NCBI GenBank assembly: GCA_050731155.1
Contig: JBOHOI010000053.1
Coordinates: 1 to 14,270, forward strand
Source: Nitrospiraceae bacterium
Lineage (GTDB): Bacteria; Nitrospirota; Nitrospiria; Nitrospirales; Nitrospiraceae
Reading direction: 5' to 3'
DNA: 14,270 nucleotides
In this document: in pieces, positions 1 to 8,008 of the stretch
Layout of the letters: each line of letters starts with the position of its first letter
Numbering within the stretch: the first letter of the stretch is position 1
Notes under the pieces: generated by a model
Told to the model about the DNA's origin: nothing
The model's input: only the letters and a program-made list of their open reading frames with translations
The model's database searches: none
Translations under genes and position numbers: made by a program

Positions 1-742
1 CTATCAAATGGTCGGGCGCGGCATGCGGCTCGATGCGCCGACCGGAAAGCTCATGTTCCGCGTCTACGACTACACCGATGCCACGCGGCTCTTCGGTGAA
101 GAGTTCATCAGCAAGGCCACGCCGCCACGAAAGCGCAAGGAGGGACCAAGCCCAGAACCTCCGGAGCCGCTGGAACCCACCATTCAAGTTGAGGGGTTCG
201 ACGTCCGCGTTACCGACGCCGGGCGCTACATCGTGACGCAAGTGGACGGCAAAGCTATGCCCGTCACTGTAGAGGAATACAAGGCGCGTCTGGCAGCTAA
301 ACTCGTTGAGGAAGCCCCGACGCTGGAAAAATTCCGTGCTCGCTGGATCGCACCTGCTGAGCGTCGAGAACTCCTAGGAAACCTGCCGGACGCGGGTCGG
401 TCGCCGCTCCTGGTTCGTTCATTGGAAAACATGACCGATTACGACCTTTACGATGTGCTGGCCGAACTGGGCTACGGCCTGAATCCGCGCACCCGTCCTG
501 AGCGCGCCGACGCGTTCACGTACAAACATGCGGGTTGGTTGTCGAAATTACCACTACCTACCGCCACCACGCTCAAGGCCCTCGCCGCGCAATTTGCTCG
601 CGCCGGCACGGATGGATTGGAGAACCCACAGGTCTTTCAGACGCCCGAAGTCGTGCAGGCGGGTGGTCTGGCCGCGCTCAAAGCGCTCGGCAATCCTGCC
701 GACGTGCTGCGGGAGACTAAAGAAAGGATGTTCGCGGCGTGA
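1..742 (+). CDS. hsdR: Type I restriction enzyme R subunit (HsdR), C-terminal part; 5' end lies outside the window
   Basis: The frame is open from base 2 and reads ...YQMVGRGMRL, which is helicase motif VI (QxxGRxxR) of SF2/HsdR. It continues into a C-terminal region (…MTDYDLYDVLAELGYG…) reminiscent of the EcoEI/EcoAI-type HsdR C-terminal domain. It is followed in the same strand by hsdS and hsdM. The TGA stop at 740-742 overlaps the GTG start of the next ORF. Confidence 0.85.
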   Translation, partial: YQMVGRGMRLDAPTGKLMFRVYDYTDATRLFGEEFISKATPPRKRKEGPSPEPPEPLEPTIQVEGFDVRVTDAGRYIVTQVDGKAMPVTVEEYKARLAAKLVEEAPTLEKFRARWIAPAERRELLGNLPDAGRSPLLVRSLENMTDYDLYDVLAELGYGLNPRTRPERADAFTYKHAGWLSKLPLPTATTLKALAAQFARAGTDGLENPQVFQTPEVVQAGGLAALKALGNPADVLRETKERMFAA

Positions 743-1326
743 AGGAACAGGAGAGGTTTAAAGAACTCGATAATATAGTCCAAGAGCTTCGACATAATAT
801 TGAAGACCACCGATTTTATAAACTGTATTTCGCTCCTGATACTGATAAGTGGGACAAGTTCTGTGTTGCAATGGACACGCTGGAAGACACTGAGCTGGCT
901 TTGGCCCATTACTTCAACTATGGATTAGGCCGCAGTGATGAGGAGCGTTACCTCCGATTGTATGGAGTTCAGCAAGCCGTTTATCTACAACAAGACGCGA
1001 TTAGGGCTCTTGTTGAAGTCGTGCTTGAAAAGAAATTTGAGCCCTCTGCTGATTCTGCGTGGAGGGCAATCCGGGAAGTCCGCCGCCATATTGGTCACCC
1101 TATAGAAGTCAAGAAGGCCGGGTCGGTCCGAAGGACCTTCCTTACACGGGTCTACCTGGCTATGGGGCTTGTAGGGCTCATCACGAGGGACAGTAAAAAG
1201 GGGGAGAGCGAGCACTGGGGAGGGCAATTGGATGAGGTGTTGTTGGCTTATTTAGCTGAAGCCATTCCGATAGTTCGTGAGATCGGGGAAAGTGTCAAGA
1301 AAAGATGGCCTCTCCCTGAGGATTGA
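739..1326 (+). CDS. Hypothetical 195-aa protein embedded between hsdR and hsdS; candidate HEPN-like (R-x4-H) defence protein
   Basis: The ORF has a GTG start overlapping the hsdR stop (GTGA) and ends 1 nt before the hsdS ATG. It is markedly AT-richer than the flanking genes; a counted 60-nt sample at 761-820 was about 33% GC. It contains REVRRH/RRHIGH (R-x4-H) near residues 113-122. No recognisable enzymatic motif otherwise. Confidence 0.6.
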   Translation: MKEQERFKELDNIVQELRHNIEDHRFYKLYFAPDTDKWDKFCVAMDTLEDTELALAHYFNYGLGRSDEERYLRLYGVQQAVYLQQDAIRALVEVVLEKKFEPSADSAWRAIREVRRHIGHPIEVKKAGSVRRTFLTRVYLAMGLVGLITRDSKKGESEHWGGQLDEVLLAYLAEAIPIVREIGESVKKRWPLPED

Positions 1327-1327
1327 A

Positions 1328-2578
1328 ATGATTGCAAAAGCTTCAGGTGTAGAAACCCCACATTCGAAGCGTTCGTTGCCCGATGGCTGGCGGTGGGTGC
1401 GGCTGGGGGAGGTGTGCGAGGAACAGACTGGCACTCGTGATCCTCGTTCAGAGGCATTGAAACAGTTTCGCTATGTGGACATCACCAGTGTGGATAACCG
1501 CACGAAGCGGATGGTTGATCCCAAAACCTTAGTTGGCAGGGAGGCCCCAAGCCGGGCACGCCAAGTCATTAGGAAAAGCGACGTCCTCGTTTCGACAACA
1601 AGACCAAATCTGAACGCGGTCGCGCTGGTTCCATCTGGACTCGATGATGAAATTGCGAGCACTGGCTTCTGCGTCCTTCGGCCAAAAAGCGCCCTCAATC
1701 CCTCCTATTTATTCGGCTTTGTCCAAAGTGCGGAGTTTGTTCAATGTCTGTCGGACTTGGTCAAGGGTGCGTTGTATCCGGCGGTCACCGATAAGCAGGT
1801 TCGCGATCAATTCATACCCCTTCCACCGCTTGCCGAGCAGAAGCGCATTGCGGCGATCCTGAACGAGCAGATGGCGGTGGTGGACCGGGCGCGGGCCGCT
1901 GCCGAGGTGCAGTTGGAGGCGGCTAAGGCTCTCCCTGCCGCCTATCTTCGCGCCGTCTTCAACAGCCAAGAAGCCCGGCAGTGGCCGAGGAGAAGGCTAG
2001 GGGAGGTTTGCGAACTTTTGCCGTCCAAATCAATTGCAACAGACGGGGATGCAGAAGTCTTAGCCATCACGACAGCTTCTCTCACCGAAAGCGGGTTCGA
2101 GCCATCTGGTGTAAAACAGGCCAGAATGTGGGCCAATGATGTGACTGAGTGTGTGGTATCTCCTGGTGAAATCCTCATTGCTCGAAGTAACACACCAGAC
2201 CTCGTTGGGCGCGTCGCCATGTTTTCGGGAAATCCAAAGGAGGCGGTAGCTTCAGACCTAACAATTCGTCTTCGTGGGAATGGTGACAGAGTGAACTCGG
2301 CTTTTCTGACAGCCTATCTGTCGTTCCTCTACCTGACCGGTTATTGGAAGGAACGCGCGGGTGGAGCGAGTGGCTCCATGAAGAAAATCACGCGAACACA
2401 AATCCAAGAAGAGCGAGTTCCGGCTCCTCCTATCTCCGAGCAGGGGCGGATCGCGGCGGTCCTGAAGGAACAGATGGCGGTGGTGGAGCGGACACGTAAA
2501 GCGCTAGACGAACAACTCGACACGATCACCAAATTGCCCGCCACGCTCCTACGAATGGCATTCAACGGCGAGATCTGA
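1328..2578 (+). CDS. hsdS: Type I restriction-modification specificity subunit HsdS, with two target-recognition domains
   Basis: Two internal conserved HsdS repeats are present. The central one reads LPPLAEQKRIAAILNEQMAVVDRARAAAEVQLEAAKALPAAYLRAVFN and the distal one PAPPISEQGRIAAVLKEQMAVVERTRKALDEQLDTITKLPATLLRMAFNGEI; each follows a variable TRD. The ATG at 1328 is preceded by GAGGA. The track ORF begins at 1277, but that upstream part overlaps the preceding gene. Confidence 0.9.
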   Translation: MIAKASGVETPHSKRSLPDGWRWVRLGEVCEEQTGTRDPRSEALKQFRYVDITSVDNRTKRMVDPKTLVGREAPSRARQVIRKSDVLVSTTRPNLNAVALVPSGLDDEIASTGFCVLRPKSALNPSYLFGFVQSAEFVQCLSDLVKGALYPAVTDKQVRDQFIPLPPLAEQKRIAAILNEQMAVVDRARAAAEVQLEAAKALPAAYLRAVFNSQEARQWPRRRLGEVCELLPSKSIATDGDAEVLAITTASLTESGFEPSGVKQARMWANDVTECVVSPGEILIARSNTPDLVGRVAMFSGNPKEAVASDLTIRLRGNGDRVNSAFLTAYLSFLYLTGYWKERAGGASGSMKKITRTQIQEERVPAPPISEQGRIAAVLKEQMAVVERTRKALDEQLDTITKLPATLLRMAFNGEI

Positions 2579-2580
2579 AT

Positions 2581-3630
2581 ATGCCTCGTGGTCTCTCTGC
2601 CGAAGTCAGGACTCATCTTGAAAAGGCAATGGAATCAGCAATTCTCGCGGTCGAGGTTTATAACAAGCCAGCGACGAAGTTTCGTTCTGGTGGCTACATC
2701 GTGTTAATGACCATTGCGTGGACGGCTTTGTTTCATGCCATCTTTTTGAAACGTAGACAAAAACCTTACTACCGCAATGATCCGGATAACCCAAGGAGCC
2801 GCTACAAAAAGGTCGAAGGGGACTACAAAGCATGGGAGTTGGCAACTTGCTTAAAGAAATTCTATGGATCGAATAACCCACCTGAGCGCAAGAACTTGGA
2901 GTTCTTCGTTGGTCTTCGCAACAAAATCGAGCATCGTTCCATGCCTCAACTGGACCTCAAAATCTTTGGCGAATGTCAGGCCATGCTTTTCAATTTTGAG
3001 GATTGTCTCCTCAAGGAGTGTGGCCAGAAATACGGGCTGAATGAGAGCCTCACTATTGCCCTTCAGTTTTCCCGAATTCAGGATAGCGAGCAGGCGCGAG
3101 CAATTCGTGTGCTGCATCGTCCCCTCCATAAACACATCGAGTCGTACATTCAAACCTTCCGATCATCCTTGAGCAATGACATCGAGAGCGATCTTGCGTA
3201 TAGTTACAAGGTCTTCTTGATTCCTAAGCTGGCAGGTAATCAGGGGCAGGCAGATGTAGCGGTTGAGTTCGTTAAATTCGATCCGAGCACGCCCGACCAA
3301 ATGGAAACCTACGAGAAGATAGTCTCGCTAATAAAGCCAGCAGTGATCCAAGTCGCTAATCCAGGAAAACTTAAGGCCGGGGATGTTGCCAAAGCCGTCG
3401 CTGACGCGACCGGAAGGAAATTTACTGCAAGTAGTCATCACTCCCGTGCGTGGCGGTTCTACCGCATACGACCGCCCAATGGCGATCCCAGGCCTGAAGT
3501 AACTCAGACACAGTATTGTCAATGGGATGAAGCGCATCGGGACTATGTTTACACAGACGCTTGGAAGAAGTTCCTCATGTCTGAAATGAAAGACCCTACA
3601 AAGTACGAACACATAATGCATTCGACATAG
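2581..3630 (+). CDS. HEPN-like protein (DUF3644-like N-terminal domain with LRNKIEH motif) plus an uncharacterised ~200-aa C-terminal domain, embedded between hsdS and hsdM
   Basis: The ATG lies 2 nt after the hsdS stop. The N-terminus (AMESAILAVEVYNKPATKFRSGGYIVLMTIAWTALFHAIFLK …NLEFFVGLRNKIEHRS) matches my memory of the DUF3644 pattern (A.E.YNKP … L.ELRDN.IH). The RNKIEH stretch is a canonical HEPN R-x4-H RNase motif. AT-richer than the hsd genes; a counted 60-nt sample at 2701-2760 was about 42% GC. Confidence 0.7.
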   Translation: MPRGLSAEVRTHLEKAMESAILAVEVYNKPATKFRSGGYIVLMTIAWTALFHAIFLKRRQKPYYRNDPDNPRSRYKKVEGDYKAWELATCLKKFYGSNNPPERKNLEFFVGLRNKIEHRSMPQLDLKIFGECQAMLFNFEDCLLKECGQKYGLNESLTIALQFSRIQDSEQARAIRVLHRPLHKHIESYIQTFRSSLSNDIESDLAYSYKVFLIPKLAGNQGQADVAVEFVKFDPSTPDQMETYEKIVSLIKPAVIQVANPGKLKAGDVAKAVADATGRKFTASSHHSRAWRFYRIRPPNGDPRPEVTQTQYCQWDEAHRDYVYTDAWKKFLMSEMKDPTKYEHIMHST

Positions 3631-3674: not shown

Positions 3675-5216
3675 ATGATGCCACGACCCCGCAAGGATGA
3701 AAACGCCAACGGTAGGCGCCTTGCGACCCAGCGATCCGTCAACGGCGCGATCAAGAGCATCTGCGACATCATGCGCAGGTCTAATTGCGCCGGCGCGCTG
3801 CAATATGTCCCTGAACTGACCTGGATTCTCTTCTTGCGTATCCTCGATGAGCGGGAGACTCGTGAGGCGGAGGAAGCCGAAGCAGTGGGCGCAGACTACG
3901 CACCGTCGCTGACCAAGCCGTATCGCTGGCAGGACTGGGCTGCGCCCAACGGGCCGAAGCGGAAGGAATTACAAGATGGGTCAATGGGGGCGTTCTTTGG
4001 CTTCGTCAACAGCGACTTGATCCCTCGCTTAAAGAAACTCCGTGAACAGCCCAACGCCACTTCGCGCCAAAAGGTCATCAGCGAAATCTTCTCCGGCATT
4101 GAGAAGACCCGCATCGATACCGAGCGCAATTTCCTGGATGTGTTGGATAAGGTCCACGAGATCAGCGCCGAGACCGTAGACCCCACGCATGTCTTCACTC
4201 TTTCGCAGGTGTACGAGGGGCTACTTCTCAAGATGGGCGAGAAGGGCAACGACGGGGGCCAGTTCTTTACCCCCCGCGAGATCATCCGGGCGATGGTAAA
4301 GGTGATCGACCCTAAGATCGGAGAGACGGTCTACGATCCGGGGTGTGGGACGGGGGGCTTCCTAGCACAGTCTTATGAATACATGCGCGACCGTTTGGGT
4401 GACAAGGCGACTGCTCCAGAGATTGAAACCCTTAAGCAACGAACCTTCTACGGACGCGAGAAGGATAATGCCGTCTACCCCATCGGCTTGGCCAACTTGG
4501 TCCTACACGATATTGATGAGCCACACATCTGGCACGGCAACACCTTGACCGGTGCGGAGACATACGGCGGTCTCTTCACCGGTGCCCCTGCCCTCTACGA
4601 CGTGGTGTTGATGAATCCGCCCTTCGGGGGCAAGGAAGGAAAGGATGCCCAGACACGGTTTGCCTACAAGACCGGCGCAACCCAGGTCTTGTTCCTTCAG
4701 CACGTCATCGACAGCCTCAAGCCCGGCGGGCGCTGCGGGATTGTGCAGGATGAAGGGGTGCTCTTCCGCACGAACGAGACGGCTTTCGTGCAAACCAAGC
4801 GCAAGTTGCTAGATGATTGCGACCTCCGGTGCATCGTCAGTCTTCCGGGTGGCGTCTTCACGGCGGCAGGGGCGGGTGTGAAGACGAACCTGCTCTTTTT
4901 CACGAAAGGGCGGCCCACGGAGAAGATTTGGTACTACGACCTGTCTGACATCAAGGTCGGTAAGAAGACTCCATTCACGCTAGATAAATTCGAGGAGTTC
5001 TTCCGTCTGCTCCCGACCCGTGCCGACAGCGAGCGAAGCTGGACCGTCACGCGGAAAGCGATCGAGGAGAAGAACTACGACCTCAAAGCAGTCAATCCGA
5101 ACGCCAAGAGCACTGAAGATACCCGCACCCCCGAAGAACTCTTGGATCTGATCGAAGCCAAAGGCCGCGAAGTCGCCGAAGCGCTCGCCACGCTCCGCGC
5201 CACCAGCAAGAAATAA
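3675..5216 (+). CDS. hsdM: Type I restriction-modification N6-adenine DNA methyltransferase subunit HsdM
   Basis: HsdM N-terminal domain signature (ALQYVPELTWILFLRILD). FFTPREI motif. SAM-binding motif I DPGCGTGGFL. Catalytic motif IV NPPFGG. GGAGA RBS at 3666-3670. The start could be the ATG at 3675 or 3678. Confidence 0.92.
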   Translation: MMPRPRKDENANGRRLATQRSVNGAIKSICDIMRRSNCAGALQYVPELTWILFLRILDERETREAEEAEAVGADYAPSLTKPYRWQDWAAPNGPKRKELQDGSMGAFFGFVNSDLIPRLKKLREQPNATSRQKVISEIFSGIEKTRIDTERNFLDVLDKVHEISAETVDPTHVFTLSQVYEGLLLKMGEKGNDGGQFFTPREIIRAMVKVIDPKIGETVYDPGCGTGGFLAQSYEYMRDRLGDKATAPEIETLKQRTFYGREKDNAVYPIGLANLVLHDIDEPHIWHGNTLTGAETYGGLFTGAPALYDVVLMNPPFGGKEGKDAQTRFAYKTGATQVLFLQHVIDSLKPGGRCGIVQDEGVLFRTNETAFVQTKRKLLDDCDLRCIVSLPGGVFTAAGAGVKTNLLFFTKGRPTEKIWYYDLSDIKVGKKTPFTLDKFEEFFRLLPTRADSERSWTVTRKAIEEKNYDLKAVNPNAKSTEDTRTPEELLDLIEAKGREVAEALATLRATSKK

Positions 5217-5272: not shown

Positions 5273-5311
5273 GCCGTATGGCAGCCCCCTCTGAGGGGGC
5301 TGCCATACGGC
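5273..5311 (+). terminator. 17-bp perfect GC-rich hairpin (gccgtatggcagccccc / tctga / gggggctgccatacggc) followed by a T-rich tract; probable intrinsic terminator of the hsd operon, or an operator palindrome
   Basis: Perfect inverted repeat read directly, with a 5-nt loop, 57 nt after the hsdM stop, followed by tcgttcacttatttctcttgttc. It overlaps the 5' extension of track ORF 5278, so the real start of the next gene is downstream. Confidence 0.45.
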
Positions 5312-5334
5312 TCGTTCACTTATTTCTCTTGTTC

Positions 5335-6456
5335 ATGATTCGTGAACATGGTACATTGGCGAACGCTATGAGAGGAATTGGACAGGAACCCCAGATAGTC
5401 GACTCCGCGCTGGAGCGATTGAAGAGCATTCATCCAGTCAAGGTAGTAAACCTACGCCGAGAGGTACATGTGGGAGATCGGCGTTGGGATGGCGAGGTGA
5501 CACTGAAGACTGATCGCGGCACGTTCCGTTACCTCTTTGAGGTCAAGACCAACTTGCGGCCACAGACCATACGACATCTGCTGATTCAGGCAGACGCGTA
5601 TCGCAAACAATGGGGTAAGGCTACAGGGCTTTTGCTGCTGGCCGATTACGTCAATCCCTCTTTAGGAGATCAGCTCAAAGACGCCGGCATCAATTTCATC
5701 GACACGGCAGGGAACTTGTTCTTGAAGCGGGAGCCGGGGCTGTATCTCTACGTCGAAGGGAAGAAGTCACCCGCCTCCACGAAGGAAAAGCCGACGCGGC
5801 TCTTTCAGCCAAGCGGCCTGACGTTGCTTTTCGGCTTGCTTGTTGAGCCTGAGTCCATCAACCACCCTTACAGGCATCTGTCGGAGGCAAACGGCATTGC
5901 CCTAGGAACAGTTGGTTGGGTCAAACGAGATTTACGAGAACATGGCTACCTGGAGCCCACCGGGAAGGATAGTTTTCGCCTAGTTCGTAAGAAGGACCTC
6001 TTAGATCGCTGGGTGCATGGGTACGCGAGCCGCCTCCGCCCTAAAGTTTTCCTCGGCGAGTATCGTGCCCTGTCGAATGATCTTGATACTGTCGTCAAAT
6101 CGTTCAAACAGTATGCCCTAGAACACGGCATGTCGTGGGGGGTATCAGGAGGGCTCGGTGCTGATGAGCTTGTACACCATTACCGAGGAAACACCGTCAC
6201 ACTCTTCGTCGAATCTTGGAGACACAATGAAGCTCTGAAAGAGCTGAAATGGTTGCCCGTCACAGGAGGCCCCATAACAGCCCTTAAAGGCTTTTCTCCT
6301 CGTGTCTTTCAGATGAGGGGGAAACAGGCCCGCTATCCGGTCGTGCACCCTCTCCTCATTTATGCGGAATTGCTCTATCAGGGGAGCGACCGTGCACTCG
6401 AAACGGCCCGCTTAATCTACAACGAGTTCCTGGAACCCTCCCTTGCCAAAGATTGA
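5335..6456 (+). CDS. Three-module protein: N-terminal PD-(D/E)xK-like domain, central winged helix-turn-helix (AbiEi/COG5340-like), C-terminal domain; probable regulator/antitoxin partner of the downstream nucleotidyltransferase
   Basis: The N-terminal ~150 aa carries …RRWDGEVTLKTDRGTFRYLFEVKTNL…, a D … ExK nuclease-fold pattern. The central region (LSEANGIALGTVGWVKRDLREHGYLEPTGKDSFRLVRKKDLLDRWV) looks like a wHTH. The stop overlaps the next ORF by 14 nt. The start is taken at ATG 5335, after the hairpin; ATG 5368 is an alternative. Confidence 0.55.
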   Translation: MIREHGTLANAMRGIGQEPQIVDSALERLKSIHPVKVVNLRREVHVGDRRWDGEVTLKTDRGTFRYLFEVKTNLRPQTIRHLLIQADAYRKQWGKATGLLLLADYVNPSLGDQLKDAGINFIDTAGNLFLKREPGLYLYVEGKKSPASTKEKPTRLFQPSGLTLLFGLLVEPESINHPYRHLSEANGIALGTVGWVKRDLREHGYLEPTGKDSFRLVRKKDLLDRWVHGYASRLRPKVFLGEYRALSNDLDTVVKSFKQYALEHGMSWGVSGGLGADELVHHYRGNTVTLFVESWRHNEALKELKWLPVTGGPITALKGFSPRVFQMRGKQARYPVVHPLLIYAELLYQGSDRALETARLIYNEFLEPSLAKD

Positions 6457-7240
6457 AGGCGATCTGGCAGAGGCACTGAAACTGCTCCGCAACTATTTCG
6501 AGCGGAGAGAAATATCTTTTGCACTTGTAGGCGCCCTTGTGCCAGCCCTTTTGCTTTCATCCGAAGTCGGAGCCCGAGAGACACGCGATGCGGACCATGT
6601 GATCAAGCTGGCTTCATGGGCAGAGTGGGATGCTGTGATCGCCGAACTCGTCGAATTAGGATTCAGGCGAGGGCGAGGGGAGCAAGAGCACCGATTGTAT
6701 TACAAAACTGGTGAGATTGACTTGATTCCTTATGGAGTCACAAACGGACCTGATGAAGTTCTGATTTGGCGTAAATCCGGGAACCAAATGAACATGACCG
6801 GATTCTCTGACGTATTCCGATATGCCAAACCGACGGAGGTTACGCATGGACTGACTCTTCCTGTTGTGCCGCTCTGGCTCTTTGCCGTCCTTAAGATAAT
6901 CGCCTATCTCGATCGTGAATCCCCGCGAGACCTTTCCGACCTCATCTATGTGCTGGAGCGTTATGAAACATCGGGAGAAGAGTCTCGCCGCTTTGAGGTC
7001 GCAAGTGGCGTTGATGGTGTGACGTATGAAACCTCGGGGGCGTATCTCCTGGGATGCGATGTTCGAGAAAATGCCTCAGATAAGGCCTTGGAATTGATCA
7101 AAGGATTTGTCGCTCCCATCACGGACGAGCATCACAAAGCGATCAATACAATTCTCCGAGAGGAAAACCTCCTGCAGTCTGAGGATCGAAGGCAGTCTGT
7201 GTATCGTTTAATCCAAGCCTTTCGAAAAGGATTAGCCTGA
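6443..7240 (+). CDS. Nucleotidyltransferase-fold protein (AbiEii / minimal NTase-like), probable toxin/effector of a type IV TA-like or Abi pair
   Basis: The N-terminal stretch FALVGALVPALLLSSEVGARETRDADHV fits the pol-beta NTase pattern hG[GS]-x9-13-DxD. Size, position immediately after a wHTH gene, and the overlapping start (TTG at 6443) are typical of AbiEi/AbiEii-like operons. Confidence 0.55.
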   Translation: MPKIEGDLAEALKLLRNYFERREISFALVGALVPALLLSSEVGARETRDADHVIKLASWAEWDAVIAELVELGFRRGRGEQEHRLYYKTGEIDLIPYGVTNGPDEVLIWRKSGNQMNMTGFSDVFRYAKPTEVTHGLTLPVVPLWLFAVLKIIAYLDRESPRDLSDLIYVLERYETSGEESRRFEVASGVDGVTYETSGAYLLGCDVRENASDKALELIKGFVAPITDEHHKAINTILREENLLQSEDRRQSVYRLIQAFRKGLA

Positions 7241-7690: not shown

Positions 7691-7948
7691 ATGGCAAGAA
7701 AAATGAACAACACATTCATGAAACCTGTAAACCCGTCTCGTGATTTGGCAGAAGTGGTGGGAAGCAAAGCTCTTCCGCGAACAGAGGTGACCAAAAAGCT
7801 TTGGGCGTACATCAAAAGGCATAAGCTCCAGGATTCCAAAAACAGACGCAACATCAACGCTGACGACACATTGAGGAAAGTATTTGGCGGCAAGAGAACG
7901 GTCAATATGTTTGAGATGACCAAGCTCGTCAGCAAGCACCTGAAATAA
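7691..7948 (+). CDS. SWIB/MDM2-domain protein (85 aa)
   Basis: Sequence …LAEVVGSKALPRTEVTKKLWAYIKRHKLQDSKNRRNINADDTLRKVFGGKRTVNMFEMTKLVSKHL is a textbook bacterial SWIB-domain sequence. AGGAGGG RBS directly upstream. Confidence 0.85.
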   Translation: MARKMNNTFMKPVNPSRDLAEVVGSKALPRTEVTKKLWAYIKRHKLQDSKNRRNINADDTLRKVFGGKRTVNMFEMTKLVSKHLK

Positions 7949-7989: not shown

Positions 7990-8008
7990 CGGGGCCCACG
8001 GGCCCCGT
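7990..8008. terminator. Short perfect GC hairpin (cggggccc acg gggccccg) 42 nt downstream of the SWIB gene; possible terminator
   Basis: 8-bp stem with a 3-nt loop, read directly. There is no clear U-tract on either strand. Confidence 0.3.

Follow-up and report, generated by a model that had tools for sequence, protein, structure and literature searches.

A DUF3644-family HEPN protein encoded within a Type I restriction-modification operon of an uncultured Nitrospiraceae bacterium

The stretch of DNA analysed here, referred to throughout as the window, comprises positions 1 to 14,270 of contig JBOHOI010000053.1 (Nitrospiraceae bacterium, assembly GCA_050731155.1), and the gene in question is an open reading frame (ORF) that encodes a DUF3644 protein within a Type I restriction-modification (R-M) operon. 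This ORF starts with ATG and occupies positions 2581..3630 of the plus strand; its exact translation gives the 349-amino-acid (aa) protein that a first-pass annotation had placed between hsdS and hsdM, and the peptides quoted in that annotation are present. Immediately upstream is hsdS (1277..2578, plus strand), which encodes a Type I specificity subunit with two target-recognition domains (Pfam PF01420 Methylase_S, E=7e-23, matched in two stretches; PADLOC Specificity_I, E=1e-66), while hsdM (3675..5216, plus strand), encoding the Type I methyltransferase, follows downstream (PF02384 N6_Mtase, E=3e-59, together with HsdM_N; PADLOC MTase_I, E=4e-189). The C-terminal part of an hsdR gene of the EcoAI/EcoEI type, truncated by the contig end, is located at 8..742 on the plus strand (PF08463 EcoEI_R_C; NCBIfam restrict_EcoAI), with residues 1-232 of the fragment corresponding to positions 507-754 of the 768 in the NCBIfam model. 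Inspection of the junction sequences revealed that only 2 nucleotides (nt) separate the hsdS stop codon from the ATG of the DUF3644 ORF, and that 44 nt, including a GGAGA ahead of hsdM, separate the DUF3644 stop codon from the methyltransferase gene. The hsdR part, a 195-aa ORF (ORF195) situated between hsdR and hsdS, hsdS itself, the DUF3644 ORF, hsdM and a downstream AbiEi/AbiEii-like gene pair all share the plus strand. Since the intergenic gaps are this short, and since promoter-like and terminator-like matches in the window show no excess over shuffled expectation, the DUF3644 ORF is probably co-transcribed with the Type I R-M operon. No Rfam family was matched in the window. The G+C content of the DUF3644 ORF is 46-50%, compared with 55-58% for hsdS and hsdM, and that of ORF195 is likewise lower; measured by position, values are 46-53% across 600-1400 and 2600-3400, which hold the two ORFs, against 55-61% in the surrounding hsdR, hsdS and hsdM sequence. 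These differences are a mild sign that both ORFs were acquired separately from the R-M genes. A discrete insertion bounded by flanking repeats was considered also, and was rejected, since no such repeats were found at the DUF3644 ORF.

The encoded protein is a real member of the family known variously as EC042_2821, DUF3644 and PADLOC PDC-S19. Residues 12-196 match positions 2-182 of the 183 in the Pfam DUF3644 profile (PF12358) with E=5.1e-55 and a score of 186.3 bits, against a gathering threshold of 27.6 bits, so that the DUF3644-like label of the first-pass annotation holds comfortably. The match to the PADLOC PDC-S19 model PDLC04950 extends over almost the entire protein (E=1.1e-133, residues 1-347 aligned with positions 1-342 of 353). 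PDC stands for phage-defence candidate, a designation given to untested embedded candidates that were entered into PADLOC (Payne et al., bioRxiv 10.1101/2024.01.29.577857), and PDC-S19 is a single-gene candidate (S denoting single gene) in PADLOC-DB v2.0.0. An identical protein is held at NCBI as MGH7205711.1, 'MAG: DUF3644 domain-containing protein [Nitrospiraceae bacterium]'. The recognition of DUF3644 as a HEPN family, with E. coli EC042_2821 as its namesake, goes back to Anantharaman et al. (2013, PMC3710099), and the probable E. coli 042 archetype is WP_001222856.1, a 437-aa protein named "DUF3644 domain-containing protein", the equivalence with EC042_2821 being judged probable from protein size, annotation and genome. 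This protein is PDC-S19 along its full length and is matched by the same set of PDC-S19 models as the window protein. Alignment of the two by BLASTP (E=5e-11) is over the HEPN domain, with 26% identity, and hhalign comparison of a profile of the window protein's family with WP_001222856.1 gave a probability of 98.5% (E=2.7e-15), extending from the HEPN domain into a beta/helix region. The HEPN assignment, the association with R-M systems and the hypothesis of PrrC-type action thus all date from 2013, and PADLOC already lists the family as a named candidate; what is new here is one more member, from an uncultured Nitrospiraceae bacterium.

The HEPN domain spans residues 12-196 as delimited by Pfam (2614..3168, plus strand), with a helical-bundle core at approximately residues 7-147, and at the level of a structural model the N-terminal domain adopts an up-down helical bundle fold. 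The LRNKIEH sequence lies at L112-H118 in alignment numbering, placing R113 and H118 exactly where the first-pass annotation had them, and the Rx4H catalytic-type motif R113-N-K-I-E-H118 is encoded at 2917..2934 on the plus strand. Conservation of this motif in relatives is pronounced. Indeed, R113, N114, E117 and H118 are invariant in all 47 relatives that share 52-77% identity with the window protein, and in 62 divergent representatives (22-48% identity), which were picked via the C-terminal domain and hence without selection for the motif, R113 is retained in 60, H118 in 61 and E117 in 54. Position 114 is N, D or H in 57 of these sequences (N in 41, D in 11 and H in 5), in keeping with the polar residue after R that has been linked to catalysis in HEPN proteins (PMC3710099). 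Neither a non-HEPN fold nor loss of the R and H residues from orthologues was encountered, and the earlier reading of the N-terminal half as a HEPN domain therefore stands. A search of PDB sequences with the family profile found no solved structure for any family member; the best match, although non-significant (E=0.3), was the HEPN toxin SO_3166, which aligns GLRNIAVH on the motif helix. Characterised HEPN enzymes, including KEN/RNase L, PrrC/RloC, RnlA/LsoA and Csm6/Cas13, are metal-independent endoribonucleases (summarised in PMC3710099), and by analogy the N-terminal domain of the window protein most likely cleaves RNA internally without a metal ion, by means of R113, N114 and H118, and probably acts as a dimer in which two Rx4H motifs are brought together in a composite active site.

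The remainder of the protein, residues 197-349 (3169..3627, plus strand), forms a conserved C-terminal domain (CTD) that has no Pfam family. The first-pass annotation had found nothing recognisable in this half; this holds for Pfam, where no match was obtained even at E≤10, and for PDB sequences, where none was obtained either, but not for PADLOC, as the PDC-S19 model covers residues 197-349 taken alone with E=1e-43. A profile of the CTD retrieved 776 clusters (50%-identity representatives) at E≤1e-3, in which the domain is invariably the C-terminal end of proteins of approximately 340-480 aa. DUF3644 is also present in 60 of 62 full-length CTD carriers, and the CTD hardly occurs except in fusion with a DUF3644 HEPN domain, indicating that the two constitute a fixed, self-contained two-domain unit. 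A Schlafen AlbA_2 domain is additionally present in two of the 62, which are guessed to be P0127 and P0209, both long and with two matched stretches each. Extra N-terminal sequence, ranging overall from 80 to 145 residues, occurs in some members, amounting to 110-145 aa in P0079, P0103, P0120, P0123 and P0139 (approximately 470-490 aa) and to 90-105 aa in others, the latter resembling the E. coli 042 archetype; presumably these extensions correspond to the 'N-terminal wHTH in some' (winged helix-turn-helix, wHTH) of the 2013 paper.

Conservation within the CTD (n=62) is greatest at Y324 (62), C313 (59), W328 (59), L332 (58) and H287 (57), followed by T325 (54), P215 (54) and R297 (53). Residues 265-349 (3373..3627, plus strand) comprise a confidently modelled sub-domain with the order helix-helix-beta hairpin-helix-helix, tentatively assigned from the model as a MerR/excisionase-like winged helix, and these last 85 residues may accordingly be a winged-helix-like nucleic-acid-binding module. 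All of the most conserved positions listed above, except P215, fall inside this sub-domain. A zinc site in the CTD was rejected, since only H287 and C313 are well kept, H286 being retained in 23, H319 in 36 and D321 in 36 of the 62 sequences; the CTD of the window protein contains a single Cys. Since the CTD is the sole other conserved part of the protein, and since no partner gene recurs beside it (see below), it is to this domain that we infer a controlling or targeting influence on the ribonuclease is most likely to belong.

Genomic context was examined for 80 loci encoding relatives with 41-76% identity in species-representative genomes. These derive from Nitrospirota, Planctomycetota, Chloroflexota, Acidobacteriota, Actinomycetota, Firmicutes, Proteobacteria, Bacteroidota and others, together with Methanobacteriota and Halobacteriota, such that the family reaches more than 12 bacterial phyla as well as archaea. 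Using the HsdM, HsdS and HsdR of the window as probes, Type I genes were found to adjoin the relative in approximately 10 of the 80 loci. Four Planctomycetota loci and one Steroidobacteraceae locus have the relative last, after hsdS (R-M-S-X), with gaps of 3-4 nt; elsewhere it is directly upstream of an HsdM-like gene (two loci) or between other genes (one archaeon), and in the window it is between hsdS and hsdM. The five hsdS-then-relative junctions (L003, L004, L006, L007 and L076, at approximately 7994-8001 in each) mirror the 2-nt gap in the window, and such tight spacing might stem from translational coupling, or from a cassette linked to hsdS that has moved. The closest relative, 76% identical and from another Nitrospiraceae, adjoins an Mrr-type nuclease and lacks Type I genes up to 8 kb away.

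A Pfam census of immediate neighbours (69 upstream and 67 downstream) returned no constant partner gene. The neighbours include Eco57I, MmeI and N6 methylases, methylases of Types I, IIG and ISP, S subunits, ResIII/SNF2 helicases, DUF1156, D12 and N4/N6 methylases, PLD, Schlafen-AlbA2, PIN, Fic, MazF, Mrr, AIPR and another HEPN, as well as some housekeeping genes. A HEPN-MNT-style pairing with the AbiEii-like nucleotidyltransferase encoded downstream was considered and rejected, given that no AbiEi or AbiEii homologue lies near any of the 80 relatives. These heterogeneous, defence-rich contexts fit a module of one mobile gene with a frequent place inside or next to R-M systems, which is consistent with the S label assigned by PADLOC. 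Conversely, with Type I genes adjacent in so few loci and in varied positions, and with no constant partner, the family is a poor fit to a PrrC-like obligate partner, and the data do not support a protein that depends on coupling to the Type I enzyme. The suggestion in the first-pass annotation that the C-terminal half couples the ribonuclease to the state of the R-M complex consequently finds no support, the HEPN-CTD unit being self-contained, mostly found outside Type I operons and flanked by heterogeneous neighbours, with the closest relative beside Mrr; the CTD may nonetheless have a sensor or regulatory role of some description.

The explanation to which we give most credence, with a probability of roughly 60%, is that the window protein is a stand-alone two-domain HEPN ribonuclease, carried as a mobile passenger of defence islands and requiring no R-M enzyme for its action. 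The heterogeneous defence neighbours, the wide spread across phyla, the low G+C content and the presence of the AbiEi/AbiEii-like pair downstream all favour the passenger element of this explanation. A precedent for the defence element comes from HEC-08, a DUF3644 protein only distantly related to this one, whose protection against phage was lost on mutation of the motif histidine (bioRxiv 10.1101/2024.01.29.577857). According to the mechanism envisaged, the gene would have lodged as a mobile passenger between hsdS and hsdM, and its product, by analogy with other HEPN systems, would be held inactive until an infection cue is received, perhaps a nucleic-acid cue from the invader sensed by the CTD. 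The activated HEPN dimer would then cleave cellular or invader RNA, leading to growth arrest or abortive infection, and would thereby provide an RNA-level second layer of defence beside DNA restriction that could function without the R-M enzyme. Several points weigh against this account. The ribonuclease activity, dimerisation, defence function and role of the CTD are all things that we infer, activity and defence having been extrapolated from other HEPN families, and no experimental test of any PDC-S19 member, or of this sub-family, was found in the searchable literature, in which no paper on PDC-S19 by name was found either. No antitoxin-like partner recurs that would keep a stand-alone HEPN toxin silent, and the recurrence of the hsdS-then-DUF3644 order, with its 3-4 nt gaps, in six loci from three phyla leaves room for a functional link to Type I enzymes.

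A rival explanation is a PrrC-like guard, in which the ribonuclease would be kept latent through contact of its CTD with HsdM and HsdS, and perhaps HsdR, and set free once the Type I enzyme is put out of action by an anti-restriction factor of a phage. The position of the gene, 2 nt after hsdS and ahead of hsdM, is what such a guard would predict, as is the location of relatives right after hsdS or right before hsdM in Planctomycetota, Steroidobacteraceae, Thermodesulfobacteriota, Latescibacterota and a haloarchaeon; moreover, PrrC-EcoprrI offers a precedent, and action of this type was proposed for R-M-linked HEPN proteins in the 2013 paper (PMC3710099). However, only approximately 10 of the 80 relatives have Type I genes beside them, the closest relative has an Mrr nuclease instead, and the gene of the E. 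coli 042 archetype adjoins the integrase of an island at ssrA, plus an orphan methylase. The position within Type I operons also varies (after S, before M, or between S and M), and the window protein lacks the ABC ATPase regulatory domain of PrrC, which is itself almost exclusively embedded in Type I operons. We therefore regard the guard as unlikely. It is a rather slim prospect, too, that the CTD is an undescribed winged-helix-like sensor, in which a conserved cluster formed by H287, R297, C313, D316, Y324 and W328 would read a nucleic-acid or protein cue, and which in an hsdS-adjacent sub-lineage that includes this locus would have been recruited to watch over the Type I methyltransferase core, giving a PrrC-like guard assembled from unrelated parts.

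Other explanations concern what the two domains do rather than where the gene resides. Anantharaman et al. (PMC3710099) list a "novel REase (EC042_2821_CTD)" (restriction endonuclease, REase) of approximately 180 aa, fused to the EC042_2821 HEPN domain and with "N-terminal wHTH in some", raising the idea of a dual nuclease in which the HEPN domain would cut RNA and a PD-(D/E)xK domain would cut DNA. The architecture encountered here is the same, relatives with a 90-145-aa N-terminal extension included, and alignments to the archetype pass beyond the HEPN domain, to archetype residue 345 with hhalign and to residue 407 with PDLC04950. Residues 205-260 are strand-rich and contain D225, E229 and K252. 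As possible PD-(D/E)xK residues these are more weakly conserved, with D225 retained in 45 and E229 in 40 of the 62 representatives, K232 in 19, and position 252 occupied by K in 45 and R in 14; a profile restricted to the CTD gave no alignment with the C-terminus of the E. coli 042 archetype. The CTD could be the REase domain that was predicted; the dual nuclease as a whole is considered improbable. The protein could instead be a non-catalytic nucleic-acid-binding regulator, for example of R-M expression, with the HEPN domain doing no more than binding RNA or holding a dimer together, as in MtlR. The resemblance of the C-terminal sub-domain to MerR/Xis-type DNA-binding winged helices would suit such a regulator, and certain HEPN families are described as non-catalytic in PMC3710099. 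Those non-catalytic families are without Rx4-6H, however, whereas R and H are near-invariant here and are joined by the polar residue after R, and the genes occur in varied defence islands as opposed to a single regulated operon, making a regulator very improbable indeed.

The window contains several further features. ORF195 (739..1326, plus strand), embedded between hsdR and hsdS, belongs to a small family without a Pfam domain; nine proteins were identified among 5.8 billion by a word-indexed search, none of which has a Pfam domain. Invariant in this family are R115-x-H-x-x-G-H120-P, which fits Rx4-6H, a Y-L-R-L-Y-G block and a Q-Q-D block, so ORF195 is possibly another HEPN-like gene of this operon, of a kind not described before. 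Profile comparison linked ORF195 neither to the DUF3644 family nor to any PDB sequence. Its relatives in two other contexts are located outside an R-M operon, after an ORF of 237 or 335 aa without known identity, and a weak homologue adjoins a DUF3644 relative at one of the 80 loci (L077). Downstream of hsdM, the AbiEi/AbiEii-like pair comprises two overlapping genes (5278..7240, plus strand) and represents a third defence module of the island. The AbiEi-like protein matches PF09952 (E=2e-17); the match of the AbiEii-like nucleotidyltransferase is weak, the PF08843 value (E=0.0024) falling below the Pfam cutoff, with an additional match to PADLOC PDC-M21B (E=2e-6). The hsdM-abiEi junction contains a perfect 19+19-nt palindrome (5273..5311; arms GCCGTATGGCAGCCCCCTC and GAGGGGGCTGCCATACGGC, separated by 1 nt) that overlaps the predicted AbiEi start at 5278, and which might serve AbiEi as an autoregulatory operator or else form a terminator-like hairpin for the hsd operon. 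Just beyond the defence island is an 85-aa ORF with a SWIB/MDM2 domain (7691..7948, plus strand; PF02201, E=6e-31). Finally, hsdS contains a 72-nt direct repeat (1822..1893 and 2425..2496, 79% identity), which corresponds to the conserved regions after each target-recognition domain, an internal duplication typical of Type I S subunits.

Should the predicted activity hold, the locus would add to the known examples of layered immunity, with a single island that combines restriction of DNA, a HEPN effector directed at RNA and a toxin-antitoxin pair of the AbiE type. The locus extends the PDC-S19 candidate family to uncultured Nitrospiraceae, and the question that emerges is narrower than that framed by the first-pass annotation, namely the role of the family-specific CTD and the means by which a stand-alone HEPN toxin is silenced. 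With an answer for even one PDC-S19 member, a widespread candidate family, represented by the 776 CTD clusters, would become a characterised defence system.

Among described systems, the window protein is closest to the PDC-S19 candidate itself, the family to which it belongs by sequence, both of its halves being covered by the model. It shares with the EC042_2821 family the homologous HEPN domain with Rx4H kept, occurrence in R-M operons and the arrangement of a HEPN domain followed by a C-terminal domain, but the N-terminal extension of approximately 90 aa that is present in the archetype is not found in the window protein. HEC-08 from E. coli ECOR52 is a tested DUF3644-HEPN protein with C-terminal zinc ribbons, in which mutation of the motif His abolished phage defence (bioRxiv 10.1101/2024.01.29.577857). 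It resembles the window protein in having an N-terminal DUF3644-type HEPN domain with RNxxxH and in being a single gene embedded in another defence system, but it has its own PADLOC family (PDLC04162) and a Cys-rich series of zinc ribbons at the C-terminus, of which the window protein has none. Comparison with the HEC-08 sequence, taken from the supplement of its paper, gave an hhalign probability of 0.14%, and the window protein did not match the HEC-08 hidden Markov model; with a different PADLOC family, no profile similarity and a different C-terminus, an orthologous relationship was rejected. Poire et al. (bioRxiv 10.64898/2026.07.06.735840) describe Ishtar1/2, monogenic anti-plasmid systems that have an N-terminal HEPN domain (DUF4145 or DUF3644) and occur in both defence islands and integrons. 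They too combine an N-terminal HEPN domain with an uncharacterised alpha/beta C-terminal domain, although their homologues are of 160-260 aa as opposed to 349 aa. Membership of Ishtar was also rejected, given this difference in size, the alignment of a 20-residue motif helix alone by the family profile (hhalign probability 2.4%), and the fact that WP_223047094.1, a RefSeq relative of the ORF, is missing from the authors' table of homologues (Table S3). These differences from HEC-08 and Ishtar indicate that the window protein is the orthologue of no experimentally tested DUF3644 protein. Lastly, PrrC combines an N-terminal ABC ATPase with a C-terminal HEPN domain and is almost exclusively embedded in Type I operons, whereas the window protein bears no ABC ATPase and its family is not consistently Type I-embedded, searches of the window protein against Pfam, NCBIfam and PADLOC having revealed no ATPase domain. 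What the window does share with PrrC-EcoprrI is a HEPN ribonuclease-type gene among hsd genes and the conceptual model of a second line of defence at the RNA level, and PrrC-EcoprrI is the model from which HEPN genes linked to R-M systems were proposed to provide a multi-pronged defence (PMC3710099).
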